This document shows, piece after piece, positions 32,979-61,238 of a stretch of 64,000 nucleotides of DNA (position 1 is the first letter of the stretch; each line of letters begins with the position of its first letter). This stretch comes from an uncultured Spirochaetota bacterium (lineage in GTDB: Bacteria; Spirochaetota; UBA4802; UBA5550), in the NCBI GenBank assembly GCA_963827275.1, contig CAWHAA010000005.1, positions 256,001 through 320,000 on the forward strand. Reading direction: 5' to 3'. A program made the translations under genes and the position numbers. The notes under the pieces are model-generated. The model did no database searches. It saw only the letters and a list, made by a program, of their open reading frames with translations, and was not told the origin of the DNA.

Positions 32979-34163
32979 ATAGCTCTCTCACTATCCCCAC
33001 ACAGCTCCCCTACCCTCATCTCAACCAACCGATCCATCCCAAACAACCTCAACCCCTTCAAGGCACACCACTCATCCAGATACAGTTGAGAATACTCTGG
33101 CCTGATATACCCATACCCAGCCAGAAAGGAATGCTTCAATACACGTTGGAACCCTTCTGCCGTCTGACTATGGACTCCCTTACAGCTCCATCTCTCTCTA
33201 CTCCAGACATTCCTCTTCAAATCCTTTGCCCGTTTCGAGTGGTTTACTGACCGATGATTGTCATTATATCGCTTCAACCACGGATAACCGGCATCAGAAA
33301 ATATCGGAGCATGCTCAGGCAAGAAATCCAGTAAGGGCATAATCGTTCTTTGTCTTTGATCAGGAATAGAATCAAATATGACTGGCCCTTTCTTTATCCC
33401 AATCGTGGAAACCAATGTCCCGATCTGGTACTTACCCTTCTCCAGAGCCACAGAATCGGACAGGTAGATGCTGGAGGTCTGGCCGTTGTGCTTGTACCGT
33501 GCTCTGTAGCCATTAGAGCCTTTTCTAGCTGAAAACAGGGCAACTGTATCCATTGATACTACCGGTTTGCTCTGGATTAATCCTGAGAGGTCTGAAGCGG
33601 TATCCTTGGGGAATCTAAAGCCTTCTGGGAACTCCTTCTGGATCTCCTCTGTCATGATCTGTTTAATAACGGGGATAAACTCCCTCAGGAATAACTGTAA
33701 CCGCCTCTTGAGTAAGGTGGCGGTGTTGTTGGAACATTGGAGTCTTCTTTGTATACTTGAGGCTGTCAGGACTTGAGGATGGATGTTGAGAGCTTCTGTT
33801 AGGATATATGAGAATGTCCAGAGCGGAAGTCTGAGATTGTGCAATGGGGTTTGGGAAGTACGTGATCCTTGGTAATAGCACTGGGGACAACGGATTGCAT
33901 TTTCTCTGGTCGCTATTTCATTAGTAAGTCTTGTTTGGCAATGGGGACAGTACTTGGGATAGAGTGGAGTTAAGGATCTGTTTGGTTAGTTGGGTGTAAT
34001 ATTGGATGTTGATCTGGGGGAATCTTGTTGAGAATTGGGTCTTGGCATTTTGGTGAAAATGTATAGGTTGTGGGGAGTGTGAAGGAGAGATATAGGTCTT
34101 ACCCTTGAAATATGGTAAAACTGACAGACCCTGATTCATCCCCATTTTTTTTAATGATTGCAT
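32891..34163 (-). CDS. IS1595-like DDE transposase, N-terminal/core part: has start, lacks native C-terminus, +1 frameshift at ~33962
   Basis: RBS GGAGGGG before ATG 34163; CPHC..CPQC Zn ribbon; SMDT / FSDAGY / HRSVNHS / HSQTAEGF..LK; runs into antisense comM. Confidence 0.85.
32971..32978 (+). repeat. Left target-site duplication GCCGGTGC
   Basis: Identical 8-mer at 61239-61246; removing the element plus one copy restores a 503-aa ComM frame. Confidence 0.9.
32979..34091. repeat. Left terminal direct repeat (1113 bp) with IRL at 32979-33001 and IRR at 34069-34091
   Basis: Matches 60127-61238 by eye except an extra G at ~33962; IRL ATAGCTCTCTCACTATCCCCACA vs reverse-complemented IRR ATCTCTCCTTCACACTCCCCACA. 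Confidence 0.93.
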
Positions 34164-34187
34164 ATAATATCCCCTCCAAGATGCATC

Positions 34188-34217
34188 ATGGTATACAAAT
34201 TAATCGATAGCGGTCAA
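34188..34217 (-). promoter_or_regulatory. Candidate sigma70 promoter for the transposase
   Basis: TTGACC-N18-TACCAT just upstream of the RBS. Confidence 0.4.
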
Positions 34218-34286
34218 TTAATTATTTTATCTTATTGTCAAACGGGAAGAAACACTGATGGTAAGGGATTTATTAATTTTTAGTTT

Positions 34287-35240
34287 TTATCTATTTTTAA
34301 TAAAGTAGCGAAATTGCGTGGGCTCAAGAACATCATCCTCTGGATTCCACGGATCTTGATGATATCGTATATTCCCACCTGAGGCAATCCAGTCTTTTCC
34401 ATCCCTTTGCAATATTATTCCAGATATAACTATCAAGACTGAATATCCAGTATTATTGCGGGCATGTTGTAATTCACCATTTGTTAATAACACACTATCA
34501 CCATTGCCGGTGGTTCCTTTCACCTCAATAAATCTTTTCTCATTATTTTTTATAGCTAATAAATCATAAGACTGAGTTGATGACATATCTTCTATTACCC
34601 AACCTAATTCTTTGTATTTTGAAATTGCCACTTGCATTGCTCTTAATTCAACAGCCTTACGCTGAGGCTGGGACAGGCCAAATCCTTGCCCATCAGAAAA
34701 ACCCACTTGATTGACATTAGTTTTTGTAGACATAGGAAAACCCAGTTTTTCATGTAGTGCTTTCTCGTTTAATGGAAGGATAGAGAGTTGCGCCTTCAAT
34801 CCATCTGGGGTTAGTGAGCATTTTTTTATTTCTTGAACCGAAGGCGGATTATCAAGGATCTGAAAATTCTCAATGGAAGCAACGTATGACATTACATCTG
34901 TTTGAGTTACTACAGGATTTGCAAATTCATATGCGCATGAACCGCATTTCCATTTAGGAGTTTTTTTTATTCTTTCTCGAATATCAGTAGAGTTGCAATC
35001 TTGATTCGGACACCGGCGATGAGTTTTAATATCTTGAGATTTATTAATATCTCCCACTTCGCCCAACCCGATTATTTTATCATCCTTGCGGACTACTACT
35101 ACATCTCCAGAACCAAGGCTTTTATGGTTAGGGACTAAGCTGTCATAATGATATTCTTCTCCGGTTTTGTCACTATAACTATCTATACCTTGAGATATTC
35201 GAGTCTTGTCAGATTTTTCGAGAATTAACCAACAGGCCAT
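34287..35240 (-). CDS. DUF3883 (PD-(D/E)xK) nuclease-domain protein with N-terminal domain and Zn ribbon
   Basis: AVELRAM, SYDL....FIEVKGTT, LTNGE; CPNQDC...CGSC. Confidence 0.75.
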   Translation of the reverse strand: MACWLILEKSDKTRISQGIDSYSDKTGEEYHYDSLVPNHKSLGSGDVVVVRKDDKIIGLGEVGDINKSQDIKTHRRCPNQDCNSTDIRERIKKTPKWKCGSCAYEFANPVVTQTDVMSYVASIENFQILDNPPSVQEIKKCSLTPDGLKAQLSILPLNEKALHEKLGFPMSTKTNVNQVGFSDGQGFGLSQPQRKAVELRAMQVAISKYKELGWVIEDMSSTQSYDLLAIKNNEKRFIEVKGTTGNGDSVLLTNGELQHARNNTGYSVLIVISGIILQRDGKDWIASGGNIRYHQDPWNPEDDVLEPTQFRYFIKNR

Positions 35241-35262
35241 AGGTCCCTCGATAAAAAACGTC

Positions 35263-35664
35263 TTATATCTTAGCCTTAATTTTTGAAAAAATGGTCATCA
35301 TTTTTTTTTTGCCAATTTCACATTCCCAAATTCTATAAACAACCCAGCCATCTCTTTTAAGCTTCCTATTAACGGTTCTGTCTCTATTTTTGTTAGCGGA
35401 TATCTTTCTTTCCCAAAATTCCATGTTTGATTCTGGTATCTTTGCACATTTGTGCCCATGCCAGAAACATCCGTCGACAAACAGAGCAATCTTCTTTTGG
35501 GGGAATACGAAATCGGGCTTGCCAAATATTTTAAATTTTCTTCGCCAACCGATAACTTTTTCTTGTCGTAGATGAAGTATTATTTTTAGTTCGGTACTTT
35601 TATTTCCACTTCCCCGGATACGTGACATGTTCCAAGAGCGGTGTTCGCTGGAAAGACGATCCAT
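35263..35664 (-). CDS. vsr: Very-short-patch repair endonuclease
   Basis: MD.LS...RS.NMSRI, GKPDFVF, FVDGCFWHGH, RIWEC. Confidence 0.93.
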   Translation of the reverse strand: MDRLSSEHRSWNMSRIRGSGNKSTELKIILHLRQEKVIGWRRKFKIFGKPDFVFPQKKIALFVDGCFWHGHKCAKIPESNMEFWERKISANKNRDRTVNRKLKRDGWVVYRIWECEIGKKKMMTIFSKIKAKI

Positions 35665-36419
35665 CAGATGACCTTGGCACGTTTCCATCTCGCCATGGCC
35701 GGGTCGAGGTGGTCAGTAAAAAAATCCTCAAATGATAGAATGTTGGGTGCTGATGAATAAACGGTGTTGCCATTCATTATTTTTTCAGGAACAACCAGAT
35801 ATATCCGGTTATTAAGCATCTCTTTTGATTGCTTTTCTGATACTCCCTCGTCAATGGTTGCCAAAAATAGCCCCTTGCCTTTAACACCTTCTGTGGCAAT
35901 TTGACGCCACCTTTCCCTCAATGTTCTTTTTGCTGTGAAAATAATACAGTCCGGGGCATTTTTATTGTAATGGTCTTTCGATGGTAATAGAAAATCAGGT
36001 TTTCCGTTTATTATACACTGTTCCTCAAAAGGATAATCAAGATTACGGAAAAGTGTTCTGATTATTGTTTCGAATGTCTTTCCCGCTCTTGCTTTTCTAC
36101 TCTGAGACAGGGACATGAAAAATTCATTAAGAGCTGGGAAAATAGCTTTATCCTGTTTTTCATCAAGATAATTCTTGATGACTTTTTCTCCGATCTTTTT
36201 TTCATAATTCAAGTATATCTGGTAACACTCATCACCCATATCCTGAACAATTTTGCTAAACTTTTCCTTCAGATCTTTTTTTGAATACCCTTTGTTGAGT
36301 ATTGCATCCATGCCACGTTTTGCAACAGTTTCAAGATTAGGCACTAACTTTTGGAAATCATCAAACATTTTCATACTATCAACCAGCCTTGTTCCTGATT
36401 CTTTTATCATCTCCAACAA
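35664..36419 (-). CDS. Type II restriction endonuclease, EcoRII-C/SsoII/PspGI-like
   Basis: [24 protein letters not shown]. Confidence 0.88.
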
Positions 36420-37389
36420 GTTTTTGCTGTTTTAATGAATCCAGTACAGATTCCGCTATCTTTTCTACAACTTTGACAACAACAGCATTCCCAAATTGTC
36501 TATAGGCTTGGGTATCTGATACTGGAATTTTAAATGTATCAGGAAACCCCATAAGACGAGCGCATTCTCTCGGGGTGAGACGTCTGGGATTTTTCCCTTT
36601 TTGTCTGATTAGAATTTCTGATCCATCTTTGTAATAACGAGCACTCAATGTTCTTGTAACATCATTAGGGCCGACCAAACCGAATCCAAAACCATTACCC
36701 TTTTCGGCATGTTTTTTTGCATAATCTTGAAGATATTTCCAAAGGTGATCTGAAAGCGTATATTTCTTATCGACCTTATGTTCAAGTATTGAGCCGAGCT
36801 TCGGCCCGGATGGATCCATTTCCGGGAATTCATATAAGAGGGGGCGGTCGAATCCGACAATGAATATTCGTTCTCTATGCTGTGGAGTAACGCTTTTCGC
36901 ATCGATTACTTTATAGTACACCGTATAGCCAAGCTTTTCTGTAAGCGTTTTGTAAATGATATTAAATGTCCGCCCCTTATCATGAGTGATAAGATTCTTA
37001 ACATTTTCAAGTACAAAAGCACTTGGGCGGAGGTCTTTTATTATCCGGGCTAATTCAAAAAAAAGATTACCTTGTTTCTCATCGTCGAATCCGTGCTTAC
37101 GCCCAAGGCTGTTTTTCTTCGAAACACCAGCTATGCTGAATGGTTGACATGGGAATCCGGCGCATAAAATATCAAAAGATGGAATGTCGGAACTTTTAAC
37201 GGAATGTATATCCCCGACAGGTTTTTCGACAAAATTTGATTCGTATGTAATTTGCGAGTACTTGTCCCAATCACAGGAAAATACACATTCGCCACCAAAT
37301 TTCTCAAATGCAAGTCGGAACCCACCTATCCCGCAAAAAAGATCTATAAAGCGGAATGTATCACGAATGTGTTTTGTCGCTCTTCTCAT
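36379..37389 (-). CDS. dcm: C5 cytosine DNA methyltransferase, Dcm/M.EcoRII-like
   Basis: [52 protein letters not shown]. Confidence 0.93.
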
Positions 37390-37620
37390 AACAACCAGTA
37401 TTAATTATTATGTCTTATTATTCAAACAGAATTTATGCTTCATTCTAATAAAAACACTTGATAATATTACATATTAAAGCTTTGTTATTATTATATATTC
37501 TCAGTCTTATAATAATATTCCAAGTAGGCAAAACGCTGGTGATCCCAACGGCACCCTCTCGCTGGAATTAAAATGAAGAAGAGGTTAAGCAAGTAAATAA
37601 TCCTTAATTAAGGAAAGTAT

Positions 37621-37860
37621 ATGATACAAAAACTATCAGAACTCTGGGATGCCCTAACCAAGACACCAGAATGGAAAGCATTCAATGATCATCTCAAGCA
37701 ACATATCAAATCATGGGAACATATACATGATTTTTGTGATTATTCCGGAACAGCGGATCCTGAACATGACGAAGAGGAAGAATACTTGTATCACATCGAG
37801 AAATGTATAGATCGTATATCAAACAAGTATCTACCAAAGCTTGGAAAAGACCGTAAATAA
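37621..37860 (+). CDS. Hypothetical protein
   Basis: 79-aa ORF with RBS AAGGA. Confidence 0.5.
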   Translation: MIQKLSELWDALTKTPEWKAFNDHLKQHIKSWEHIHDFCDYSGTADPEHDEEEEYLYHIEKCIDRISNKYLPKLGKDRK

Positions 37861-38008
37861 TTTCGTTGATATTAAATTTAAAGCCCCATGTTCAGTGTTT
37901 TTTTATGTCGATTGCATCATGGATATTTTAAATTCAATAATAGATGAATCTTCACAGGTGAAGTAACCACAATTTAAAATGAAACTGAGATTGCTTATTT
38001 AATTTATT

Positions 38009-38521
38009 ATGAATATAAAATATTATTTCGATCTAAGAAGCAAATATCAGCCGAAAAGCTTAAATATAGTTTTTATTTTCGAATCTCCTCCAGTGTCAGG
38101 TAAATACTTTTATAACAAAGAAGGAAGCATTAAGGAGCCGCTATTTTCGGCAATGATGAAGCTGTTAAACTATAATCCAAAGAATAAACAAGAAGGTCTA
38201 ACCCATTTTGCTGATTTTGGGTATTTAATTGTTGATTCAACGTATGAGCCAGTCAACAACCTTAAAGGCAAAAAGCGGGATGATAAGATCCTTGAGAATT
38301 ATAATAATCTAATTATGGATCTGAAAGAGATGGGCGATCCAAAGGATCTAAGTCTTATACTGGTGAAGGCTAACATATGCCGGTTGCTTGAAAAAAGGTT
38401 GTTAGAAGCTGGTTTCAATGTGCAAAATAATGGTATTATAATTCCTTTCCCATCAACAGGACAGCAAAACAAGTTTCTAATAGAAATTCGGAAGGTCCTT
38501 GCAAATGATTCGGCTGTATAA
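38009..38521 (+). CDS. Uracil-DNA glycosylase-superfamily-like protein
   Basis: IVFIFESPP near the N-terminus and IPFPS near the C-terminus resemble UDG-like motifs A and B. Confidence 0.5.
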   Translation: MNIKYYFDLRSKYQPKSLNIVFIFESPPVSGKYFYNKEGSIKEPLFSAMMKLLNYNPKNKQEGLTHFADFGYLIVDSTYEPVNNLKGKKRDDKILENYNNLIMDLKEMGDPKDLSLILVKANICRLLEKRLLEAGFNVQNNGIIIPFPSTGQQNKFLIEIRKVLANDSAV

Positions 38522-38558: not shown

Positions 38559-41356
38559 ATGGATATTAGTATTCAAGAAATTGAAATTGCTTATAGAAAA
38601 TTAAAATCATACTTTTATTACGACAATACTTCACATTATTTTCGCAAGGCATTGGCGGAATTTGAGTCAAAAGATGGTTTTGAAAATAGATTATCTAACT
38701 TATGTGAATTTTTGAATAATTATAATAGTGTTGATTCACAAAACTATTTTTCTGAAATCGTTGAAAGAATCTCCTTTATTAGTCTACCAAAACGAATTAG
38801 TTATAAAAATCATGATTATGTTATTTCTAATCAAGTTGAAGATTCAAAATACACTATTGATAAATTGACATTCTTAATTGATGCACCAATTGAAGTGCAT
38901 ATTATATCTGTATTGTGGATTTTAAAGATTGGCGTGCAAGTTGCCTACTAATTATAAAACATATTTATACGGCAATAGAATTCAATTTAATTATAATTCC
39001 AATGAAGTTAAATCAGGATTACAATTATTTAAACCATATTATAAACAATATCAAAATTGGCGAAATAATGGACTTAGGAGTATTGAAAATTGTTTAGATA
39101 ATAATATAAATGTCGCCATGTTATTGCTGGACGTTAAAAATTATTACCACTCAGTAAAATTTTCATTTAATAAATTTAATGATTCCATTAATAATCTTAA
39201 TATTGAGAAAAGCTTTTTGCTACTTAATAAGTTATTATATGAAATTCATTATTCTTATACAAAAATAATCAACATACATACTGACGAAAAACACAATGAT
39301 GGCACCACTATATTACCAATAGGTTTATTATCATCAGGTATTTTGGCGGATTGGTATCTAAATGATTTTGATGAAAAAACGATAGCTCAAATCAAACCAT
39401 TATATTACGGTAGATATGTTGACGATGTTTTAATTGTCATAGAAAGCCCGAATATTGATAAGCAAAAAGATGATTTACTCGATGAGTTTCTTACAGATTA
39501 TTTTATTATAAAAAATGAAATCTTAACAAAGAAAGGAAATAAAGTTTATAAGATAAATAACTACCGAGGATTAGAAATACAAAAAGATAAAATAAAACTA
39601 TATCTATTAGATGCTAATGCTTCGAAAGCTGGTTTGAAAAAATTTGAAAACACCATCCGTAGGAATAGTAGTGAATTCCGTTTTTTACCTGATGAAGATG
39701 AAGTAAATGCAAATTTTGATGAAGAAGCTTATTCGATTATTTATTCTGATTCAATAAATAAACTACGAAGTGTCGAGGGTTTGGTGCACGATAAATATAA
39801 TATTTTTAGTAATAAATAACAATAGGAGGGCTTTTGGTTTTTTTATAAAAGAAGTTAATTCTCAAATAGATAAAATAAAAATTGCAAGTCCCGAGCTTGA
39901 GAAACGTACGATTTACTTTTTAAAAGATTATTTAACTATATCAGCATCAATTCCAATCTCACTTAATTTGTCATTTGCCGACGATCTCTTGTTTGATTGC
40001 TCAGTTTGGATTCATTATTGGAATATTCAAAATCTATAAGAATTTCCAATTTATTTAGACATAATTATGTTTACTATCCTCTATTTAACTTCACAGACAT
40101 GAGTTACAATTATTCAATAAATCTTTTAGATAAAGATATCAATAATTATCCATTTGTTAGATCATCGAATTATGGCATAACACATAATCATATAAAATAT
40201 ACACCTCGATTTGTTCATCTATATGAAGTTCAATTATATTTGATGTATTATAATTTGATTATCACTAAAATCAATAATGATAAAAATGATTTCAGTGAAT
40301 ATATCAATGAAAAACATTTATCAGAAATAACTATTGAATTATATTCAAATATTAACTACGGACGAGGAGATACTGATGAAAGAGAATATACATGATGGGT
40401 TTGGTTTTAAACAGAAAATCTTGAAACAGATTCCAGAGAGACAGGATGATGAAGAAATCGGTATTCGGATTGTTGAGCATTATTTTGAATTTGAAGAAAA
40501 AGAAAAGAAGTCAATAAGGGTGGGAATAGCAAACCTTAAAATAAATCATGATGATAGTTTAGATAATATTAAAAATCCTAATTTATCTTTTAGCAAGAAA
40601 CAAAAACTATGGAAACTATTGAATTTAATGGAAAGAGAGGATTGTGATCTATTTGTATTACCGGAACTATCTATTCCACATGAATGGCTTCAAAATTTAG
40701 CTAAATTTTCAGACGAAAATCAAAAAGCTATTATTTTTGGATTAGAACATTTCAAAGACAAATATAATCGAGTTTATAATTTAATTGTAACAATATTGCC
40801 ATTCAAAATATTTGGTTATAAAGCATCATATATTAGATATCGTTTAAAAAACCATTACTCGCCAGAAGAAAAAAGACAGTTAATAAACTTAGGGTATAGA
40901 ATACCAATACCATTGGTATATTGTTATGATTTATTTTCATGGAATGGGGTGTCTTTTTCGTGCTACAATTGTTTTGAATTCACAGATATAAATCATAGGA
41001 GTTTGTTTAAATCTGACGTGGATTTTATCGTTGCTGTAGAATATAATAAAGATATAAATTATTTTTCAAATATTGTTGAATCGATTGCAAGAGATATTCA
41101 TTGTTATGTTATTCAAGTCAATAATTCCTGTTGGGGTGATTCGCGCATAACTCAACCATCACCAACTGAAATAAAAGATATAATAAAAATAAAAGGTGGC
41201 GAAAATAGTGCTATTTTAATAGGCGTTATTGATATAGATAAACTTAGAAATTTTCAAATACAAGATTATGAAACACAAAGAAATGATGAAAACTTCAAAC
41301 CCACACCACCAGATTTTGATCAAGATAATGTGAGAAGACGCATGGGCCTTCTGTGA
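38559..41356 (+). pseudogene. Reverse transcriptase-nitrilase fusion (DRT1/UG1-like), fragmented into about 5 ORFs
   Basis: AYRKLKSY.YYDN; LDVKNYY; LPIG; YGRYVDD; nitrilase triad PEL / K.HY / CFE; WGDSRI..P. Confidence 0.8.
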
Positions 41357-41755: not shown

Positions 41756-42028
41756 ATGAAAAAACGATTCTCAGAAGAGCAGATTGTCAGGATCCTCGGT
41801 GAGCATAAGGCGGGAAAAAAGGTAAAGGATATCGCCCGAGAACACGGCATTAGTGAGAACTCCTTTTATATCTGGAAGCGCAAATATGGAGATATGAGCT
41901 CTCAGGAAATTGTTCGATTGCGACTACTTGAAGATGAAAATACACGATTAAAGAAACTGGTTGCCGATTTATCCCTGGATAACATGGCACAGAAGGAGAT
42001 CATAAAAAAGTTCTGCGACCCGGAGTGA
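41756..42028 (+). CDS. IS3 transposase OrfA
   Basis: KKRFSEEQI..HGIS...Y.WKRKYG..LEDEN.RLKKLVADL. Confidence 0.92.
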   Translation: MKKRFSEEQIVRILGEHKAGKKVKDIAREHGISENSFYIWKRKYGDMSSQEIVRLRLLEDENTRLKKLVADLSLDNMAQKEIIKKFCDPE

Positions 42029-42880
42029 AGAGAGAGGCAGTAAGCTATCTGATGAGTAGCTTCGGGTTTTCGATACGACGATCATGCAAGGTTTCCTGTA
42101 TGGCTCGTTCTACATTCTCATATAGTCCGCAGCCAAATGATGACGCACGAATCATTGGAGAGATAGATTCGATCCTTTCAAAAAATTCAAAATATGGCTG
42201 CGGAATGATACAGCTCAAGCTGAGGCAAAAAGGGATACTGATTAATCATAAGCGTACAGAAAGGATATATAAAGAGCATGGGCTGCAATTACGAGCGCGG
42301 AAACGTCGGAAAAAGATAGCTTCATTAGAACGATCACCCGTTGAATTGCCGAATGAACCTGGCGTCATATGGGCTTTAGATTTCATTCATGACTCGGTGG
42401 GCTTTAAAAAGAATCTCAAAATACTGACAGCGATTGACCCTGTAACGAATCATTCGCCACTTATTCATACTGGATTTTCAATAACGGGTAAGGATGTTTC
42501 TGAACTACTTGAAAGAGCATGTGAATCCTTTGGGTATCCAGAATTTATACAATGTGACAATGGTCCTGAATTTAGAAGCCAGGAACTCGACCGTTGGTGC
42601 TATGAAAAGGGGATTAAAATAATTTTCACAAGGCCCGGCAAGCCATCAGATAATTGCCACATAGAAAGTTTTAATGGAACATTTCGGAATGAATGTCTCA
42701 GTGCTCATTATTTTAAAAAACTGAGTACAGCCAGAGAGATTATTCATGAATGGTGGGAGAGAATATAACGAGGAAAGACCTCAAAAGAGATTAAAAGGGA
42801 TGACGCCAAAACAATATAATGATATGTTAGTAATCGAGAAAACTAAACTTGAAGCTGGTCGAATTGTGGGTGCAGGATCA
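42025..42880 (+). CDS. IS3 transposase OrfB (DDE); frameshift near 42757
   Basis: WALDF, CDNGPEF, IESFNG.FR.ECL; YNEERP continues in another frame. Confidence 0.88.
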
Positions 42881-44364: not shown

Positions 44365-45415
44365 ATTTTCAAATCATTCCACAAGAAAGTTTTTCAATCC
44401 CGCCAAATAAGCCGAAGTTACAAGCACGGATGTATGCCCAAGTATTACTGAGAGCTGGTGGATATCTTTTGTTCTGTTGTAGAAATCGATTGCAAATCGA
44501 TGCCGAATTCAATGAGGCGAGTACTTCGTCTCTAATTTACCTCCCATCTCATCCTGAATCCTCCAGAGCCACATCGAGAAAGCACTGCCCGAGTAATCCT
44601 TGAATGGTTCCCGCCCTACAAGATTATATGATTTAAGGATAGCAAGAGTATCCTCATCAAAACGTCCATTGATCTCTTTCCCTTTTGACATTGCCCTGAA
44701 GTTGCCATCACGGTCTATTTTTAGAGAATTCAGGGAACCAACACGTAATCCGTATTTACGCAATATTCTCAAAGCACAAAGGGCTTTGATGTTTCCGTTA
44801 AGCTTCTTGAGTTGGCCACGGCCTGATACTTGTTGGGCTTCCTCTATCTGTTGTAGGGCATAGTTTTCAATACAGATCGAGTTCTTCATTCGAAGGGATT
44901 TGTTCAGCCTCTTTGATTGCGATTTTCTTTTTTGGGAGACCCTTGGCTCTTCTGAAAGGGTTCTTGAAAATAATCTCCCAACGTTCCAAGTCAGAAAAGA
45001 ATGAACTCGGAGAAGCAATTCGCTGGCGTTTGGTATTGCTTGAAAGCCTTTTATTGGAATTGAGATAAGCTATGTACTTATCGACAATGAGAGCATCAAC
45101 ATCTATGAGGGATGTGCCATTGAGCCATGTGAGGAAATAATTCAGATTTGCCTTGAAGCTCCGTATGGTGTGCTTGGATTGGAAACCTGATAACCATTGG
45201 TTCACAAGATCATCAACACCCTTTTTATCCAGCTTGGCTTTTTTAACTTCTCTACCGAACTCATTTTTTAGAGAGTCAATATAATATGCCTTGGCTATCT
45301 GCTGGATCTGCTTATCAGATAAGTCTGCTAGCTCAGGAGAGTCTAATATCTTCTGTATGGAGTCATTAATTCTTGTCGCTATCTCTTTCTTGGTATCATC
45401 ATTAATGGGGGTCAT
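44348..45415 (-). pseudogene. Tyrosine recombinase with frameshift (~44880) and in-frame TGA in the HxxR motif
   Basis: N-terminal SAM-like domain; YGLRVG (Arg), H*IRH, LGH, AYL (Tyr). Confidence 0.85.
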
Positions 45416-49768: not shown

Positions 49769-51847
49769 GTGAAGCATATAGATATTAAACAACTCCAGAA
49801 ACATCTTGTAATAAAAGGGTTGGCTGGAACAAGAAAAACAGCATTATTAATCGCCATAGCTATACAGGCTGTATCTAAGGGAATGAAGGTTCTTTATCTC
49901 ACTTTTAATAAAAAAATACGTTTTGAGGTGATAGAAAGATCAAAATTAAGCAAAACCAAAGTACATACGTTCCACAGTTTTGCCTATAAGGAAATTATTC
50001 AAACGGACTTTCTAAATGATATTTTCAAAGACTTTTCGGTAGATGAACTAACTCAATATTTCGATGAGGATTATAAATATTTCTCATCAAAATCCAGTAA
50101 ACCTAAAGATTTATCCCAAAAGACATTGAGTGAACTTATTAGATGGTGGTGTGACTATTGTGAAAATAGTACTCAAACCAAGTATGATTTAATTATAGTA
50201 GATGAGTTTCAAGATTTGAATCCCAGTATGTTTAGGATGTTGAAAAAACTCTATATGATTAATAAGAAAAATGATGTTAAGATAATAGTAGCCGGAGATC
50301 CTTACCAAACGATATATCACTATCTGAATGGTTCAGATTCATCTGAGAATTACTTCAATACTTTTGGTAAATATTTTGGTGAATTTGAGACAATACATTT
50401 AGATCAATGTTATAGATGTTCTCCTGCAATACAGAGATTTGTTAATGGGTTCTACAGAAAACAATATATAAATTACAGGCAATTTGATTTAAATGGATAT
50501 CAAACCTCTGATTATTCGGAAGATGTATTTATTCATTTAATTCAGCACAGAAGATTAGTTAATGAAAAAGTATCTGAGATATGTAATCAATATCAGGGCA
50601 TAAAAATTAAAATTCTGGCACGTGTAAATAGAGAATTATCTCCATTTTCTGATTTAATTGCCAAGAATGATCTAATACAAACTTCTACTATTCACTCTGA
50701 AAAGGGCAATGAATGTGATGTTGTAATAATAGTTAATACCATATTTAATGATAAAATATCCTCTGAGGAAGACAAAAATCTGTGGAATGTAGCCATTACC
50801 AGAGGAAAGAAAACGGTGCATATTGTTTCCTCTTTTCCCAGCGAGAAGATATTGGATTTATTTGAAGCAGGAACTTATACTTTAATTTCCGAACAACATG
50901 ATCTATCTAATTCTACCATGGAAGACATTCCCCAAGAAACAATAAATTTAACTCCAGACAAGGTTAGAGAGTCATTGATTGATTCTGTGGAAGTCCAATT
51001 GGATTATGAGGATGCTCCATTTATTCCATATGAACAGCAGAATCTTAAAAAGAAATCTCGTTATATGACCAATACAAGGATCAAAGGTAAAAATATTGAT
51101 CTTGTACTTAATCAGGTCAAAGGAAAATTAAATTTCGAATATCTTGATTTAAACCAGTTGAAAAACCAAGGTTTTACTGATATACAAATTGTATCTTATA
51201 TTCTTGAGACCCAGAAAGAATACTTCAATTACAAGATTTCTGATGAAGAATTACTTTCACAAAAATTAAGAAGATTAGATCTGGCTAAATATTATGAGGT
51301 CTCTGGAACAGAAATATTGGATTATTTATCAATGGTATTAAAATTATCTAAATATTCTGACTCAGATAAAAAGACAAATTATTGTGGAGAGGAAGTTAAA
51401 ACAATTTATTTAAATTCTTCAAAGGCAAAAGAAAGAGGAATTAGGATTTATTTCCCCAAGTACAAAACTATTAATTCTTTAAATACTGATAAAAATATTA
51501 TTAAAGTTGAACTTTACAGAATTAGGAAATTGGGGATTAAAAAATTAGGATTATCAATTAAGAATGTTGGAGATTTATTAAGGTTTATAGATAATAATGA
51601 ATTAGAAAAACTTTATGATGAATGGATGAAATATGAATTTACATCTTTAACTGGTAAAGAAGTAAAGAATATTGAATTATTGAAGAAAAGAAGAAATATT
51701 TCAAGTTTGGAAGATTTAAGAGATTTAATTGATAGAGGTAATATTAAAATTAAAGATAAAAGAATTTATTATCATATTCTATTATCATTTATAAATGAAA
51801 GAGAAAGGAGGGAGATAGAGGAAATAGTTGGAAGTAAAAAAAGGTAA
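49769..51847 (+). CDS. SF1 (UvrD/Rep-like) helicase fused to a C-terminal domain resembling rolling-circle initiators
   Basis: GLAGTRKT, TFHSF, VDEFQD, GDPYQTIY, YRCS, TIH..KG.E, NVAITR; C-terminal LIDSV / RRLDLA / TIYLNS..IRIY / IKVEL. Confidence 0.75.
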   Translation: MKHIDIKQLQKHLVIKGLAGTRKTALLIAIAIQAVSKGMKVLYLTFNKKIRFEVIERSKLSKTKVHTFHSFAYKEIIQTDFLNDIFKDFSVDELTQYFDEDYKYFSSKSSKPKDLSQKTLSELIRWWCDYCENSTQTKYDLIIVDEFQDLNPSMFRMLKKLYMINKKNDVKIIVAGDPYQTIYHYLNGSDSSENYFNTFGKYFGEFETIHLDQCYRCSPAIQRFVNGFYRKQYINYRQFDLNGYQTSDYSEDVFIHLIQHRRLVNEKVSEICNQYQGIKIKILARVNRELSPFSDLIAKNDLIQTSTIHSEKGNECDVVIIVNTIFNDKISSEEDKNLWNVAITRGKKTVHIVSSFPSEKILDLFEAGTYTLISEQHDLSNSTMEDIPQETINLTPDKVRESLIDSVEVQLDYEDAPFIPYEQQNLKKKSRYMTNTRIKGKNIDLVLNQVKGKLNFEYLDLNQLKNQGFTDIQIVSYILETQKEYFNYKISDEELLSQKLRRLDLAKYYEVSGTEILDYLSMVLKLSKYSDSDKKTNYCGEEVKTIYLNSSKAKERGIRIYFPKYKTINSLNTDKNIIKVELYRIRKLGIKKLGLSIKNVGDLLRFIDNNELEKLYDEWMKYEFTSLTGKEVKNIELLKKRRNISSLEDLRDLIDRGNIKIKDKRIYYHILLSFINERERREIEEIVGSKKR

Positions 51848-52507: not shown

Positions 52508-52581
52508 AAATTTTAAGCCTCTGTCCAGTACTTTTTGTGCGGGGGGCTTAATCTAAGAGGAAGTAATTGCTGAAAAAATGC
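52508..52581 (-). repeat. ~75-bp repeat, inverted relative to 54977-55053
   Basis: Direct alignment of the reverse complement. Confidence 0.85.
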
Positions 52582-53035
52582 ATTCATTAACATGGGCCTT
52601 TACTTCTGAGGATGTAATTTCCTAAAAAGTTAAACTATCACGTGGCACAAATTTGGGGGTGGGATCACTTTAATAAACTTAATTGGTTCTCTATACATAT
52701 TCTGGATATTACAAATTTATTCATGCTTGATTGCGAACCAATTCATCATACAAGTCTATACACTAAATTTTCCCGTTGGTTATATTGTCATGTGCAGATA
52801 TTTCTTGACATTAGTCTTCTAATATTATGTATTATAAATAAGAAATTCCATCTGGGTGGGATGTGACTATTATAATTAACATATATCTATTATCTATGAA
52901 TGCATGAGAAGCTCTGATCTGGTTTTAATTCGAGTAGCACAAAGTATTTATTCCTTAGAAATGTATCTGCCTACACTCATATATTGGCATACATAAAAAG
53001 GCTGAACAATCACAATCAAAAGGAGACCAAATAAT

Positions 53036-53821: not shown

Positions 53822-53995
53822 TTTACTAACTTTATATTTTAAATAATTTGATGGTTGTTGATTTCTTTTATACATTCAATTCCAAACATCTATTGAATTT
53901 TGTGGTTATTATTTAAATCGTCAGATCGAGGACTTTTCTATTATCTAAAAGTGCGAAAGATATTGTACACTACCGAAGCAAACCCCTCTCAAGTG

Positions 53996-54034
53996 AAGCC
54001 TCCTCCAGCAGAAAAAGCGCTGGACAGAGGCTTA
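53996..54034 (+). repeat. Internal 39-bp palindromic core copy of the 52.5/55.0-kb repeat
   Basis: AAGCCTCCTCCAGCAGAAAAAGCGCTGGACAGAGGCTTA. Confidence 0.8.
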
Positions 54035-54898: not shown

Positions 54899-54976
54899 CT
54901 GAAACAACTTACTGATTTTTATATTTTACTTTCTAGGAATCTGCCCACTCATCGGTGCCGGCCGAGGGGACACAAA

Positions 54977-55053
54977 GCATTTTATCAGCAATTACTTCCT
55001 CTTAAATTAAGCCCCCTCCGGCAGAAAAAGCGCTGAACAGAGGCTTAAAATTT
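54977..55053 (+). repeat. ~75-bp repeat, inverted relative to 52508-52581
   Basis: Direct alignment; overlaps the stop codon of the Lgt-like gene. Confidence 0.85.
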
Positions 55054-55792: not shown

Positions 55793-55822
55793 TCCACGGG
55801 TGGAATTTATTCCACCCGTGGA
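55793..55822. terminator. Perfect palindrome/hairpin between the DUF4064-like and Lgt-like genes
   Basis: TCCACGGGTGGAAT-TT-ATTCCACCCGTGGA. Confidence 0.6.
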
Positions 55823-55839
55823 ACATCTCAAAAATATCA

Positions 55840-56217
55840 TTAGGCCTGCACTTCTTCTTTTTTTTGTGCAAAAGCTATAATTCCACCAATTAAAAATAGA
55901 ACTAAAGCTATTAATGAAAAGAAATTAAAAGTAACAAGGGTAATTCCAGATAATAAAGCTGCCACTAATAAACCCACTCCTGCAATGACTGGATTTCTTT
56001 TCCCAAAAAGACAACATACAAATCCAATTAATGCTGAAATTAAACCTATTGCCATAAATGTATTGCCGGTTTCTTGAACGGCAGCTCCGCTATTACCTGA
56101 AATTGAATCAAGACCAACCGCACAAGCACCTGCACACAAAGCTCCCGGAAGTTGCATTACAGCACCAATGACACCCATGATCATTGGAACCATTGAAGTA
56201 CCTCTTTTCTTTGCCAT
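55840..56217 (-). CDS. Small 4-TM membrane protein (DUF4064-like)
   Basis: Gly-rich TM helices; RBS AGGAG. Confidence 0.6.
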   Translation of the reverse strand: MAKKRGTSMVPMIMGVIGAVMQLPGALCAGACAVGLDSISGNSGAAVQETGNTFMAIGLISALIGFVCCLFGKRNPVIAGVGLLVAALLSGITLVTFNFFSLIALVLFLIGGIIAFAQKKEEVQA

Positions 56218-56267
56218 TAAGAATCTCCTTTTAAAAATATAATTACAGGCTTTATTTTAATTGAAAG

Positions 56268-56981
56268 TTATTTATCTTTTTTCTTAACTGAAATAAATTT
56301 TAATGTAAAAACTGGATCATCTACAAAACCTTCCTCCATTAAGCTTTGCTCATTAAATCCTCTTTTTGAATCAGAAATGAAAGCCGCAGTAAATAGAACA
56401 TTATCTCCTTTATTTAGTTTTTCAACGTCTTTATATACTGATGAATTAAGAGGTATCATGCTATATGTTAGCATATCACTAAGCTCATTATTCCATGTTG
56501 CATAAGTTATTTCTTTATCATCAAATTCACTTTCAATTTTTATATAAAGTTTTTGCCCACCTTCGTTAGTCCCAATGTCTGTTAGTTGACCTTCCCAATT
56601 CACCACCCTTCCATTACCAAGATAACTTCTTAGAAATGAAACCATTTCACGATATACTGCTGATTTTTTTAATTCATTATCTTGCTCGGCATACTTTATT
56701 TTAAATTCTTTAAGTTTAGCATGAAATTTAATCTGATCTGGTTTTCCAATTTCCTTTGGTTCTGTATTTTCAGATGTTATTTTATCATCTGAATTACCTG
56801 AGGTACTAGATGATTCATTTTCACCAATATTTGCAATAATTCCAATTAAAATAATTGTAACGATAATATTGAGAAAATATGATAATCCTTTCTTCACATC
56901 TGTCGATTTGTAGATCAAATAAAAACCATAAAAAGGTATAAGATACTTCCAATTAAAACCTTTTGTTTCCTGATCTGTCAT
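56268..56981 (-). CDS. Membrane-anchored hypothetical protein
   Basis: N-terminal TM segments, Ser-rich linker, possible OB-fold C-domain; RBS AGGAGG. Confidence 0.6.
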   Translation of the reverse strand: MTDQETKGFNWKYLIPFYGFYLIYKSTDVKKGLSYFLNIIVTIILIGIIANIGENESSSTSGNSDDKITSENTEPKEIGKPDQIKFHAKLKEFKIKYAEQDNELKKSAVYREMVSFLRSYLGNGRVVNWEGQLTDIGTNEGGQKLYIKIESEFDDKEITYATWNNELSDMLTYSMIPLNSSVYKDVEKLNKGDNVLFTAAFISDSKRGFNEQSLMEEGFVDDPVFTLKFISVKKKDK

Positions 56982-57475
56982 TTGAGCCTCCTTGTAATAT
57001 TAATATTTGCCATTTATAAAAATCATACCTATTTAAATACAGTACTTCAACGTACGAATGGTTATCTGTTTCAATTTGCTATATCATAAAGTTACTGGCT
57101 CCTGTTAGAGCTCTGGAAACGGGAGGAGGTATATTACTTCCTGATGTTGCCCACTTTATCTGATTTATTTTAACAGAAAATTTTATAATCGGACTTAGAC
57201 CAATGTTTTTTCCGGATCCATACTTTCTCGGGATCGGCCAATTGCATTCTTTCACATCCCCCGGATGGAATTATTATTAAAATTTGTATGTATTATTCAG
57301 ACTATTGTCAAGTAATTTATAACAATATTTTCCATTGAAGATGGGAACGTTGAATAATTTCCTTCTAGAATATAATCTGTTAATCTTGAATATCTAGGTT
57401 GTTATGATTGCCTCACGAGCTTGATACTGTGTTGCAAGAATCGGGTGATGACCTATTCAGTTTCTGTGGCCTTAA

Positions 57476-57724
57476 TTACTGTATGGTGACGTCACCCTGA
57501 GTTAAACGAATTATCTCTTTTTGAACATTAGCTTTTAAATCATCACTACTTTTTTTTAGATTCTTGATTGTGATATAATAAGCCAACAATCGCTCAATTG
57601 GGATAGACCAATCTGCAAAATCGTTTATATCCTTGATAAAAGACTCATATAGCTTTATCCTCTTTTCTTTAAAGCTTGAAAACAATGCCAAGATCTCAAT
57701 ATTTGAAAAAGCTTTTTCTTCCAT
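57476..57724 (-). CDS. Hypothetical protein
   Basis: RBS GGAGG, 82 aa. Confidence 0.55.
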   Translation of the reverse strand: MEEKAFSNIEILALFSSFKEKRIKLYESFIKDINDFADWSIPIERLLAYYITIKNLKKSSDDLKANVQKEIIRLTQGDVTIQ

Positions 57725-57820
57725 AAATAACCTCCATGATTAACTACTATAGGTGTATACGAATGAGAAGTCAAAATGACATAAAATATTTTTAAAAATT
57801 AAATTATTTTAAGAATAAAT

Positions 57821-58545
57821 TTACTTTTTGTTTATGGCAATTAAATCCCATAGCCTTTTAGCTATTTCTTGTCCTAGTGCTTCAATCGATTTCTTCGACA
57901 TATCGACCGTCATTTCTCCTACTGATTCATCTGGTTCTTGACCGTTATCTGCTTTCATCAGTTGATCAATAATAGAAAAGTTATCATCAGAGAAATCAAT
58001 CCTGATGGTGTCGGGGAGGGCATTAAATGCTTCTAATATCTTGGAGTTGTTGTATTTGTTACATACTCTTGCTGGTAGAGCCATGTCTTCCCTGTAGTGC
58101 TTCATGTAAACATCTCGTTTCAATAAAAGATAATTAGGTGTACTTTTTTCAATAACATCGTCGTGATTATAAAAAGCCCATCTTCCTGTATTGTAAAATG
58201 CTTGGGGTCTTTTGGTATTATTCCAATACACTCCAATTGAAACTCATAGTCATAGAGGATCGTACAAATGCCGTTGCACTTATCTCTGTTCTCACATACA
58301 ACTATGGATATAAATTTATTGATATCGACAACCGATTCACCATCAATCTCCAATAATGTTCCTCTTAAATTATAGACCAGCTTAATTATTCTTAAAAATG
58401 ACCTGTTGCATTCATAAGCTAAAATGGATATGGCGTTTCCTGTTTCCGTATATGTTTTTGGAAAATTTATCTTTGCTAACTGGATAGCCTCAGGAAGCTT
58501 TACGGACTTACTTTTTGAATTGAATGTTAATCTATATGTAATCAT
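57821..58545 (-). CDS. Hypothetical protein, probably one frameshifted gene (58120-58545 + 57821-58231)
   Basis: Overlapping same-strand ORFs; RBS only before 58545. Confidence 0.45.
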
Positions 58546-58577
58546 AGGAATCTCCTTAAAATAATAGTCGTGAATAT

Positions 58578-59216
58578 TTATTGCTTAGCCCATCGATTCA
58601 CTTTTCTTTGGTTCTGATAAATACAGGAACCCCATGAAATATAACCGGACATCTTATTTAGCTTGTCGTGATTTGATCTGTATACCAGAAGCCAGTATTC
58701 CTCATCATCAACAGATGTTTCTCTATTCTTGCCTTGATTGAATTTTTTTCTGGCATTTGCAATAAGATGACCCCAGCCATAATTAGCTCTTCTTTCATTT
58801 TTATAACTCATTGGAATCCTTTTTGTTATATCCACCGCCTGTTCAATAGCCTTGAATTTCCATACCAAACAGGGGAAAATATCCCGAGAGAAATCATCGA
58901 GATTAACCTTCTCACAATTGGAATATTCACAAATACCCCAAAGATATACGGGGTCATAACGCTTATGTAATTTCATTATCTGGTAAGCAATTAATGCATC
59001 CCACTCGCCATTACTTTCGCCAGTATCTGGATGATCATTGAAACGATATCTTATCTTATTGATAGCCCGATTACAGCATTTAACCCACGTATACATTCCT
59101 ACAGGGTCAAAGGTTTCATTATGGCCGTAGTTATAATCTCTTTTCCTATTTCTAATTCGATCCAATAGATTCCGTATCCACCAAGGTGAGAACTCAGAGA
59201 CTTTCATTGTATTCAT
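58578..59216 (-). CDS. Transposase-operon accessory protein C (unknown, Trp/Arg-rich)
   Basis: ATGA overlap with the upstream ORF at 59213-59216; RBS GGAGG. Confidence 0.65.
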   Translation of the reverse strand: MNTMKVSEFSPWWIRNLLDRIRNRKRDYNYGHNETFDPVGMYTWVKCCNRAINKIRYRFNDHPDTGESNGEWDALIAYQIMKLHKRYDPVYLWGICEYSNCEKVNLDDFSRDIFPCLVWKFKAIEQAVDITKRIPMSYKNERRANYGWGHLIANARKKFNQGKNRETSVDDEEYWLLVYRSNHDKLNKMSGYISWGSCIYQNQRKVNRWAKQ

Positions 59217-59509
59217 TTCTTTAACCTCCGTAATGAGTATCCTTGCACCTTCCCACGTTGCTCGATGATTGTTGCACATAATTCAATTATTTCATGCTCA
59301 CTCAAATGACGGCATAGATACTTCAGGTCTTTATCTACGAGATAAAAGTTATCAAGAGTGAAGCGGTTAGCCTTTTTATGCGGATCTCGCAACTCCACTT
59401 CGCAATTCAATGGGGTTAATTCTCTACTTGTCAAAGCACAGCACCTCCCTTGTTGTTCTAATAATTGCCAGAAATGTTCAGCGGTGAATTTAAAGGCTTC
59501 ATCTGTCAT
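59213..59509 (-). CDS. Transposase-operon accessory protein B, degenerate HNH-like
   Basis: L..QQGRCCALT...L pattern and DNFYLV; start overlaps the transposase 3' end. Confidence 0.6.
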   Translation of the reverse strand: MTDEAFKFTAEHFWQLLEQQGRCCALTSRELTPLNCEVELRDPHKKANRFTLDNFYLVDKDLKYLCRHLSEHEIIELCATIIEQRGKVQGYSLRRLKK

Positions 59510-61238
59510 ACCCTTTCTCCTTTATTATTTTTTTCCGTTTATCTTTTGACATACCATATTTTGGTTGTCTGGGTTTCTTGGGTGCTTCTACTTGTTTTAT
59601 AAACTTGGTGATATCTGATAGTTCAGATAGTTCGTTCTTGTCGTAGGTGTAGAGGATATCGGGCAAAATCGGAATAAGCCTTTTCAGTTGATAATTAACA
59701 TCCCCCTTACCTTTCTTATTAACTTCCACGACATCTGCAATACCAAGCATTGCCCATATACGAACCACTCGAAGTGCTTTCTTTTTATTTATAGTTCCAG
59801 CATTGCATACGGTATTTAACGAGCGATGTTCACGATCAGCCAGAAATGAAAATAATCTGTGGGCTAAAGAATTGTATTCAGACTCACTCTGTCTTCTTTC
59901 TCTATTTTCCTCATCCCAATAGAACAGGTAATCCTCAACCGCCTGTTTGAGGGGATAATATTCATTCCGGTCTAATATGAATTTTAATCTTTTGGGGATT
60001 TGTTTTCTGGTCTTACTGAAGATCCCATGAACACGATTATCAGGTGTTGGAAGGTTATAAAGACATTCATTGATTTTTGCTTTTAAAGACCATTTTTCAG
60101 TTTTATCTGGTGACTTGTCCGTGCATATAGCTCTCTCACTATCCCCACACAGCTCCCCTACCCTCATCTCAACCAACCGATCCATCCCAAACAACCTCAA
60201 CCCCTTCAAGGCACACCACTCATCCAGATACAGTTGAGAATACTCTGGCCTGATATACCCATACCCAGCCAGAAAGGAATGCTTCAATACACGTTGGAAC
60301 CCTTCTGCCGTCTGACTATGGACTCCCTTACAGCTCCATCTCTCTCTACTCCAGACATTCCTCTTCAAATCCTTTGCCCGTTTCGAGTGGTTTACTGACC
60401 GATGATTGTCATTATATCGCTTCAACCACGGATAACCGGCATCAGAAAATATCGGAGCATGCTCAGGCAAGAAATCCAGTAAGGGCATAATCGTTCTTTG
60501 TCTTTGATCAGGAATAGAATCAAATATGACTGGCCCTTTCTTTATCCCAATCGTGGAAACCAATGTCCCGATCTGGTACTTACCCTTCTCCAGAGCCACA
60601 GAATCGGACAGGTAGATGCTGGAGGTCTGGCCGTTGTGCTTGTACCGTGCTCTGTAGCCATTAGAGCCTTTTCTAGCTGAAAACAGGGCAACTGTATCCA
60701 TTGATACTACCGGTTTGCTCTGGATTAATCCTGAGAGGTCTGAAGCGGTATCCTTGGGGAATCTAAAGCCTTCTGGGAACTCCTTCTGGATCTCCTCTGT
60801 CATGATCTGTTTAATAACGGGGATAAACTCCCTCAGGAATAACTGTAACCGCCTCTTGAGTAAGGTGGCGGTGTTGTTGGAACATTGGAGTCTTCTTTGT
60901 ATACTTGAGGCTGTCAGGACTTGAGGATGGATGTTGAGAGCTTCTGTTAGGATATATGAGAATGTCCAGAGCGGAAGTCTGAGATTGTGCAATGGGGTTT
61001 GGGAAGTACGTGATCCTTGGTAATAGCACTGGGGACAACGGATTGCATTTTCTCTGGTCGCTATTTCATTAGTAAGTCTTGTTTGGCAATGGGGACAGTA
61101 CTTGGGATAAGTGGAGTTAAGGATCTGTTTGGTTAGTTGGGTGTAATATTGGATGTTGATCTGGGGGAATCTTGTTGAGAATTGGGTCTTGGCATTTTGG
61201 TGAAAATGTATAGGTTGTGGGGAGTGTGAAGGAGAGAT
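59499..61238 (-). CDS. IS1595-like DDE transposase, core + 209-aa C-terminal extension, lacking start/RBS
   Basis: Frame open from the element end (ISPSH...YPKYCPHC...DDE...) to the stop at 59499; upstream antisense comM supplies no start before a stop. Confidence 0.87.
   Translation of the reverse strand: MSPSHSPQPIHFHQNAKTQFSTRFPQINIQYYTQLTKQILNSTYPKYCPHCQTRLTNEIATRENAIRCPQCYYQGSRTSQTPLHNLRLPLWTFSYILTEALNIHPQVLTASSIQRRLQCSNNTATLLKRRLQLFLREFIPVIKQIMTEEIQKEFPEGFRFPKDTASDLSGLIQSKPVVSMDTVALFSARKGSNGYRARYKHNGQTSSIYLSDSVALEKGKYQIGTLVSTIGIKKGPVIFDSIPDQRQRTIMPLLDFLPEHAPIFSDAGYPWLKRYNDNHRSVNHSKRAKDLKRNVWSRERWSCKGVHSQTAEGFQRVLKHSFLAGYGYIRPEYSQLYLDEWCALKGLRLFGMDRLVEMRVGELCGDSERAICTDKSPDKTEKWSLKAKINECLYNLPTPDNRVHGIFSKTRKQIPKRLKFILDRNEYYPLKQAVEDYLFYWDEENRERRQSESEYNSLAHRLFSFLADREHRSLNTVCNAGTINKKKALRVVRIWAMLGIADVVEVNKKGKGDVNYQLKRLIPILPDILYTYDKNELSELSDITKFIKQVEAPKKPRQPKYGMSKDKRKKIIKEKGYDR
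60127..61238. repeat. Right terminal direct repeat (1112 bp)
   Basis: Copy of 32979-34091. Confidence 0.93.

Follow-up and report, generated by a model that had tools for sequence, protein, structure and literature searches.

The locus described here raises the question of how a genomic island comes to carry its transposase gene in two pieces, one at each end, and of what kind of mobile element such an island is. The window, that is, the whole stretch of 64,000 nucleotides analysed (positions 256,001 to 320,000 of contig CAWHAA010000005.1, from an uncultured Spirochaetota bacterium), contains a 28-kb island that interrupts comM and is bracketed by two direct repeats. An earlier note, made from the sequence alone, had proposed that the island integrates as a circle and thereby splits its own IS1595-like gene. 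We regard the island, with a probability of roughly two in three, as a site-specific integrative element with a split gene for an IS1595-related DDE transposase, which enters its target by the replicative (cointegrate) integration of a circle and is excised by recombination.

The split gene at the comM locus

As shown in Table 1, the two repeats are 1113 bp (left) and 1112 bp (right) in length, and their sole difference is an extra G at position 33962 of the left copy; no further copy was found in the window's genome by blastn and tblastn. The repeats end in imperfect terminal inverted repeats (IRs), in which 17 of the 25 terminal bases match in register. An 8-bp target-site duplication (TSD), GCCGGTGC, is present on the outer sides only, and the inner flanks, ATAGGTCT and CCGTGCAT, differ from each other and show no duplication. 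The interrupted gene was identified as comM (YifB family) by Pfam Mg_chelatase and by TIGR00368 (398.9 bits), and the in-silico removal of the element with one TSD copy brings comM back in frame through the N-P-C-R-C-G motif. The interior is AT-rich, with 25–39% GC against 43–66% in the flanks. The repeats, IRs, outer-only TSD and unduplicated inner flanks described in the earlier note were thus all confirmed.

The IS1595-like open reading frame (ORF) spans both inner IRs, as had also been stated. An ATG preceded by GGAGGGG lies inside the island, with 24 codons before the left repeat is reached, and the frame of the right repeat extends 208 codons past its inner end to a stop at 59499 on the minus strand. 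The prediction that a one-repeat circle encodes a protein of about 603 amino acids holds for one copy of the repeat only: the start piece, the right repeat and the tail together give 603 stop-free amino acids, whereas the start piece joined to the left repeat gives a frame that ends after 80 amino acids owing to the extra base. This base may be an assembly or sequencing error or a recent lesion, because relatives in four of four sequencing runs lack it and the window's assembly shows frameshifts in 2 of 44 host probes. A circle made by recombination would hold the whole gene only if the allele of the right copy were inherited at 33962. The contig depths were 99–110 in the interior, 144–151 in the repeat and 77 at the comM junction in run X2, and approximately 8, 8 and 6, respectively, in run X3, where depths from runs X1–X5 cannot tell a circle from the integrated form and the contigs do not span the repeat.

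A family with the same anatomy

Matches were found in 71 of 401 genomes of the phylum, with 59 of 76 in one family, and in 20 of 22 genomes of the genus containing L033, a Leptospira record; among the relatives, 10 of 101 had matches at E ≤ 0.001, two of them marginal. A first test set consisted of 24 candidate end-pairs including that of the window, and nine more were fetched afterwards, giving 33 in total. The same anatomy, in Leptospira as well as in other spirochaetes, was found in 30 of the 33 pairs (21 of 24 and 9 of 9), although the genomes are kin and the pair counts are not independent trials. The pairs set aside were G122 and L069/L068, which lie at a contig edge, and G118 C2, whose ends are 68% identical and are not a repeat pair. 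The scripted reading of the first set gave 18 pairs with repeats of 1095–1307 bp, 97.9–100% identical, and an outer 8-bp TSD (17 perfect, one at 7/8), and three more pairs with a perfect TSD and diverged or mosaic repeats were read by eye (G111 C11, G123, G124). In the later nine pairs, whose ends were shifted by up to 3 bases for the TSD reading, the repeats are 98.6–100% identical over 1037–1257 bp and the TSD is perfect in eight and 7/8 in one. The TSD is perfect in 28 of the 30 pairs overall and 7/8 in two.

The two repeats of an element are 97.9–100% identical in 27 of the 30 pairs, while those of different elements are 46–86% identical, as would be predicted were both copies made at insertion. 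Along the gene, the order is constant: TSD, repeat, tail, two small genes (orf98 and orf233), cargo, start, repeat, TSD. At the inner end, an in-frame start was found on the 5' side in 18 of 18 and 9 of 9 pairs, compared with 2 of 18 and 2 of 9 at the outer end. Its position is conserved within clades, at 24 codons in the window, P0002 and P0004 and at 10 codons in the G102 and G103 elements; one Leptospira clade has a W-S-D/E peptide at the start, and the start position in the run X2 relative, read by eye, matches that in the window. The tail is open for 153–221 codons in all pairs. Of the distinct repeats whose ends are defined, 65 in all, 61 contain no stop and four have an ATG before the region encoding the zinc ribbon, which bears out the claim that the repeat has no native start or stop and sets the family apart from ordinary IS1595 elements.

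It is scarcely credible that the island consists of two ordinary IS1595 copies with chance flanks, or that it is a misassembly. The window's assembly does contain frameshifts, and databases annotate pieces of the family as scattered 'ISXO2-like transposases', in one case as phage. However, the tail is conserved in 18 aligned proteins, and the same polarity and outer 8-bp TSD, with the inner IRs and the N-terminal/C-terminal split that the earlier note had said to look for at homologous loci, are present in 29 other end-pairs, several of them in multi-megabase contigs (G102, G103, G120).

The transposase and its tail

The window protein matches DDE_Tnp_IS1595 in Pfam with 32.7 bits against a cut-off of 27. 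NCBIfam NF033547 remains below its cut-off of 75 bits, with 22 bits for the window and 22–35 for the window and three homologues, and P0012 gives no match. In the 18 aligned sequences, the N-terminal four-cysteine zinc ribbon (C48, C51, C68 and C71) is conserved; Pfam Zn_Tnp_IS1595 is not matched by the window protein, and its DZR match is weak. D181, D266 and E312 are invariant in 18 of 18 and would, by this conservation, form the catalytic triad. The N-terminal sequence is not conserved family-wide, and no conserved internal start codon was seen in the alignment. The homologues, 110 in number, belong to Spirochaetota wherever the source gives a taxon, and their lengths are roughly those of a core-only or a core-plus-tail protein. 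One core-only protein, P0030, is fused to approximately 47 residues of a comM-like N-terminus, which hints at a second comM site or a deletion.

The structure prediction has a mean pLDDT (predicted local distance difference test) of 69 and places a winged helix in the tail at residues 450–527. This predicted domain resembles IscR (Z 8.3, root-mean-square deviation 3.0, 79 aligned), with many similar matches, and the predicted core loosely resembles the IS256-family ISCth4 transposase (Z 6.8, deviation 8.4, 231 aligned), where the Z values mark a shared fold and not a function. A PDB sequence search gave nothing significant, Foldseek gave no match at E ≤ 0.001, and the Atlas matches for the tail were all below 0.9 and serve as leads only.

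The nonsynonymous rate (dN) in the tail is 0.05–0.14 against a synonymous rate (dS) of 0.5–1.7 in six of eight comparisons, with a higher dN in the other two. Judged by these rates, the interior-encoded tail is under purifying selection though it has no start of its own. In the relatives, the start-side copy encodes the start, the zinc ribbon and the full DDE core, and its frame ends 0–81 codons into host DNA. Since the integrated state in these relatives still encodes the start and the putative catalytic core, integration, as read from these frames, usually takes away the winged-helix tail and does not silence the enzyme. The earlier proposal that integration switches off the full-length enzyme is therefore to be narrowed: the tail is lost, but the start, zinc ribbon and core are kept.

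Solo repeats, arrays and joined forms

Solo repeats with a TSD account for 21 of 75 entries with defined ends. The solo in G027 lies in comM at the same codons as the window element, where the earlier note had suggested looking for one. Two arrays were found. The array in G102 lies at the stop codon of an MBOAT-like gene, and in it one 8-bp spacer links four complete elements with three solos and also with a fifth tail-side end; that in G103 consists of three elements, two of which are copies of each other yet have separate repeat pairs.

The arrays bear on a very unlikely alternative, in which a site-specific solo insertion sequence (IS) first makes the TSD and a circle with the same segment then enters by homologous recombination. 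Solos with a TSD are indeed common, and the mosaic repeats show that recombination between repeats occurs. However, tandem elements share no repeat and have the 8-bp target between them, even in the case of the two copies of one element in G103, and the solos mostly lack start and stop and lie at the same targets instead of being dispersed.

Whole-gene, one-repeat forms were found in public assemblies: KF114878, L111, L114, L124, P0002 and P0004. KF114878 (L106; 47.4 kb, filed as phage and annotated as linear) opens within the core, continues into the tail and closes with the start and the core. Set against a solo of 100% identity that lies, with a TSD, in ssb of G118, its two ends meet without a gap; G118 lacks the interior. 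L111, L114 and L124 are whole-gene contigs, and L124 matches the two inner flanks of the integrated element in G105 at 97–98% identity. The joined forms keep the whole 1.1–1.3-kb repeat between start and tail. These forms and the matching solo fit excision to a one-repeat circle.

Several side observations concern these sequences. KF114878 was deposited as an LE1-like phage, yet no capsid, tail or terminase is named in its annotation, and it appears to be a member of the split-transposase family. L107 (NZ_CP043881), a 393-kb 'plasmid p1', resembles a second chromosome, as the housekeeping genes hisE, fabG, acpP, rnc and aroB adjoin its element. In G102:C2 e1–e4, and also in G103 and G104, each element has an inverted internal copy of its own start-side end, 96–100% identical, of up to approximately 2.8 kb plus the first 217–332 bp of the repeat (e.g., 1610045–1613040 and 1620931–1623743); such a copy, which is not present in the window, would code for no more than the N-terminus as far as the zinc ribbon. 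In G025, L025:7096–7491 and 9886–10013 are partial direct-orientation copies of the start and the first part of the repeat, upstream of the start-side repeat.

Flanks of the repeat ends

Among distinct repeats, the inner flanks are the dinucleotide AT in 17 of 17 and 16 of 17, while the outer flanks are AT in 2 of 17 and 0 of 17; the dinucleotide was not part of the scoring used to place the ends. In the later nine pairs, the tail-side flank is AT in eight, the start-side flank is AT in five and AA in four, and no outer flank is AT. A codon-based cause was rejected, as the dinucleotide occurs in different frames in different elements, and because it falls in different codon positions the constraint acts on the DNA. 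We infer that donor-type ends need the AT flank and that integration replaces it.

These flanks argue against a composite transposon, a distinctly unlikely reading in which the island moves by its outermost IRs with the start-plus-core protein and the tail is supplied from an internal start or is accessory. It is in favor of this reading that none of the three putative catalytic residues is missing from what the start-side copy encodes, that some repeats contain internal start codons and that the circle is not directly observed. However, a composite would leave unused the AT that is conserved only at the inner ends, and would leave unexplained the in-frame joining of start and tail across one repeat. 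The tail is under apparent purifying selection yet has no conserved internal start, and the paired repeats are near-identical while neighboring elements differ by 14–22%.

Probable mechanism of integration

The layout, the TSDs, the fixed targets, the solos, the arrays and the selection on the tail are seen directly, and the replicative integration of a circle can be pictured on them as follows. The circle, with start, one repeat and tail, would hold a whole gene for 600–650 amino acids. The enzyme would nick both IRs of the single repeat at their AT-flanked tips and join them to a target staggered by 8 bp, and host replication would then copy the 1.0–1.3-kb repeat, giving identical direct repeats and an outer-only TSD. 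The new outer ends would lack the AT flank and the chromosome would give a tail-less protein, and integrated copies and solos would thus be poor substrates. Recombination between the repeats would free the circle and leave a solo, and the C-terminal winged helix would probably select the target.

With regard to the integration of a circular element by a DDE copy-in reaction, as first proposed, the split layout, the inner IRs and the outer TSD recur across the family, and the circle and the copy-in chemistry are what we infer from them. The product does not settle the chemistry, because the same product is obtained by cutting from a concatemer. In this alternative, which we consider unlikely, the circle replicates as a head-to-tail multimer, and the cuts fall on the left IR of one repeat and, in the following repeat, on the right IR; the terminally redundant linear unit is pasted in as in retroviruses, with loss of the AT flanks, and the repeat is copied before integration. 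The alternative predicts the same junctions, identical repeats and inner-only AT flanks, and replication genes are indeed present in several elements: G043 has prim-pol/D5, G105 has a G2P-type Rep and, by annotation, KF114878 has DNA polymerase B and L107 has CyRepA1. However, these genes differ among elements, and none was found in G102 e1 and e2 or in the scanned part of G103 e1; moreover, multimers are required, and the data show no sign of them.

Several observations weigh against replicative integration of a circle and the restoration of the gene within it. The pairs are related and were picked from same-contig matches, and three have diverged or mosaic repeats (92%, 94% and differing 5' ends). 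Some ATG, GTG or TTG precedes the zinc ribbon in 26 of the 65 repeats, and a variable internal ATG occurs in one subfamily from Leptospira; a tail-bearing protein could therefore be made without circularization. The frame through the window's left repeat is broken, as described above. The joined forms are known from assemblies only, where a collapsed repeat could give the same path. PLSDB contained no free plasmid with the gene, its one record being an integrated copy in a 393-kb replicon, and IMG/VR contained no relative. The AT flank is not universal: besides AA in four of the later nine pairs, some tail-side flanks are CT, TG or TT, and KF114878 has AC. Finally, the 12 elements compared have no replication, resolvase or transfer gene in common.

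Targets and the C-terminal tail

The targets were read from the translated flanks. The window element and those of G043, G027, G020 and G098 target comM. From their motifs, we take the other targets to be comEC (L108), radC (L028), uvrD (L029, L035), ssb (L185), tRNA genes (G105, G437, G411, G274, G389) and the stop codons of MBOAT-like and SpoIIE-like genes.

The window and G043 proteins, both of comM-targeting elements, are 49% identical in the core and 43% in the tail, while the tail identity is 14–34% in 160 different-target pairs of similar core identity; the residual for the tail of this pair is +17.5, and the different-target pairs scatter by 4.2. Conversely, L035 (uvrD) and L106 (ssb) are 85% identical in the core and 44% in the tail, and L173 and L107, also with different targets, are 94% and 53% identical, respectively. 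Against a link of tail to target, several different-target pairs retain 66–84% tail identity, the tails of L077 and L079 diverge despite a shared site, and the signal comes from few independent pairs. The tail appears from these identities to track the target, as a lead and not as a result, and the C-terminal winged helix seen in the predicted model may pick the target.

When these readings are joined, the elements would form a new mobile-element class common in Leptospira, LTR-like in layout (LTR, long terminal repeat), in which the 'LTR' is the catalytic middle of the element's own DDE integrase, the whole enzyme is made from the circle only and an exchangeable winged-helix tail programs the target, be it a competence or repair gene, a tRNA or a gene end. 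Integration would lock the element by cutting the targeting domain from its start codon and stripping the AT flank from the ends, and the solo arrays would be a stacked record of past integrations. We hold this joint reading, including the locking, to be evenly balanced between true and false.

Comparison with known systems

In SSV1-type archaeal tyrosine integrases, the recombination site lies inside the integrase gene, which is split by integration and restored by excision; the chemistry is that of a tyrosine recombinase, the att core is short, and neither a TSD nor a duplication of kilobase size arises. The present elements likewise have their recombination site inside the recombinase gene, but they use a DDE enzyme and make an 8-bp TSD. 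LTR retroelements have identical long direct repeats made at insertion, an outer TSD and solo scars. In contrast, no reverse transcriptase is conserved among 12 of the present elements, and the repeat is transposase coding DNA; a retroelement reading was rejected, as the window's reverse transcriptase is unshared cargo.

With the IS1595 family, as described in the available part of PMC8101967, the elements share a DDE_Tnp_IS1595 domain, a four-cysteine zinc ribbon, terminal IRs and an 8-bp TSD. They differ from the IS of that account in that the gene starts and ends outside the IRs, a tail of 150–220 amino acids is added and the targets are fixed, and also in that paired repeats surround 17–100 kb of DNA and NF033547 stays below its cut-off. 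The ends begin with AT, while Merlin ends are GG in the same source. The element is not an IS1595 insertion sequence, because its gene is not enclosed by the IRs.

The integrated geometry equals that of an IS6 cointegrate, and direct repeats around a passenger with an outer-only 8-bp TSD are shared with the IS6/IS26 cointegrates, pseudo-compound transposons and translocatable units in the accessible text of PMC7986276. Arrays are a further likeness to IS26 in that text, and recombination leaving one copy and a one-copy circle as the proposed mobile form would be others. However, the transposase belongs to another family (only IS1595 models matched), and IS26 is described there as autonomous with the whole gene inside, whereas here the inner flanks are fixed gene parts, the arrays have separate repeat pairs and a spacer, and the targets are specific. 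The DDE-type integrative and conjugative elements TnGBS and ICEA, as far as covered by the part of PMC3942029 seen, are likewise large and mobilized by a DDE enzyme via a circle, with an 8–9-bp TSD and some target preference. In contrast to the present elements, their circles abut two terminal IRs across 6–10 bp with no long duplication, their gene is intact and they carry conjugation genes; the present element has four IRs against their one terminal pair.

The element would behave as an IS26 translocatable unit does, and its gene is split as in the SSV-type integrases, but it belongs to neither group. In our judgement the architecture is of a new kind, although the chemistry on which it draws is known. 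A literature search, which did not reach ISfinder, subscription journals and supplements, found no description of such elements. In the available portion of PMC4758666 (Fouts 2016), a different 79-kb contig is listed as a kmetyi LE1-like prophage, and the split layout is not described there. A link to LaiGI was dropped, as the portion of PMC4140679 at hand points to a ParAB/Rep plasmid and gives no link to split-transposase elements.

Module genes and cargo

In an all-against-all search of 12 elements, only the split gene, orf98 (12 of 12) and orf233 (10 of 12) were common. The usual catalytic His of HNH proteins was not seen in the orf98 alignment. The element's tyrosine recombinase was rejected as a required resolvase, since homologues occur in only 3 of the 12 elements and that of the window is broken. 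No relaxase or type IV secretion system family was found among the scanned ORFs of the window or 91 ORFs of five other elements, many of these ORFs having no family. The cargo of the family includes restriction-modification, metal efflux and varied replication genes. In the window, the pieces at 38559–41356 are likely a defence reverse transcriptase-like gene that is broken or mis-sequenced.

Three further observations concern the cargo. The window (34287–37389) and G043 (L020:10208–12648), both comM-targeting, have a trio of Vsr, EcoRII-like and C5 methylase genes near the start-side end, and their other cargo is different. Short repeats in the window at 52508–52634, 53985–54034 and 54924–55053, which form one direct pair of 50 bp and one inverted pair of 93 bp, surround two lipoprotein-like genes and are possibly cassette ends. 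DprA-like (DNA_processg_A) genes are recurrent cargo in the G102 elements L139, L140 and L141, one of them inside the inverted duplication described above.

Table 1. Positions of the element, its target gene and its cargo in the window (HTH, helix-turn-helix; RBS, ribosome-binding site).
Feature	Position	Strand	Remarks
5' part of comM (YifB family), with the left TSD at its end	31938–32978	+	Mg_chelatase, TIGR00368; in frame with 61247–61717
8-bp target duplication, left copy	32971–32978	+	
Left direct repeat (start-side copy, R2)	32979–34091	−	zinc ribbon, HTH, DDE core; frame broken at 33962
IRs of left repeat	~32979–33003 and 34067–34091		
Interior: RBS (34171–34177), ATG (34163), first 24 transposase codons	34092–34177	−	AT dinucleotide adjoins inner IR
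NOV_C-domain protein, Vsr, EcoRII-like endonuclease, C5 methylase	34287–37389	−	cargo
Reverse transcriptase and nitrilase-like pieces, four, in several frames	38559–41356	+	cargo
IS3-type orfA/orfB passenger	41756–42768	+	Pfam HTH_Tnp_1, rve, HTH_21
Tyrosine-recombinase-like gene in two frames	44509–45415	−	only N-terminal piece matches family
UvrD-like helicase	49769–51847	+	cargo
orf233, third conserved gene of the module	58578–59279	−	no family match
orf98, HNH-like small protein	59213–59509	−	overlaps transposase stop; Atlas score 0.96 to HNH cluster
Interior: C-terminal 208 codons of transposase	59499–60126	−	predicted winged helix ~59658–59891; AT dinucleotide adjoins inner IR
Right direct repeat (tail-side copy, R1)	60127–61238	−	open frame without own start; invariant D181, D266, E312 (numbering from 61238)
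8-bp target duplication, right copy	61239–61246	+	
comM 3' part	61247–61717	+	in-frame rejoining

Implications

If the reading is true, it defines an undescribed family of genomic islands that is present in most Leptospira-type genomes of the sample, with 20 of 22 in one genus and 59 of 76 in one family, and the collapsed repeats account for contig breaks in the carrier genomes. The directionality switch would arise from gene architecture alone and with a DDE instead of a tyrosine enzyme. The family would also give a testable handle on IS1595/Merlin-type transposition. A protein-only, site-specific integrase with a modular targeting domain and a cargo of 17–100 kb would also be of interest as a tool. 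In the available part of PMC12378983, comM, comEC, radC and ssb are linked to natural transformation. A single family of elements would thus target four genes that are all linked to transformation.

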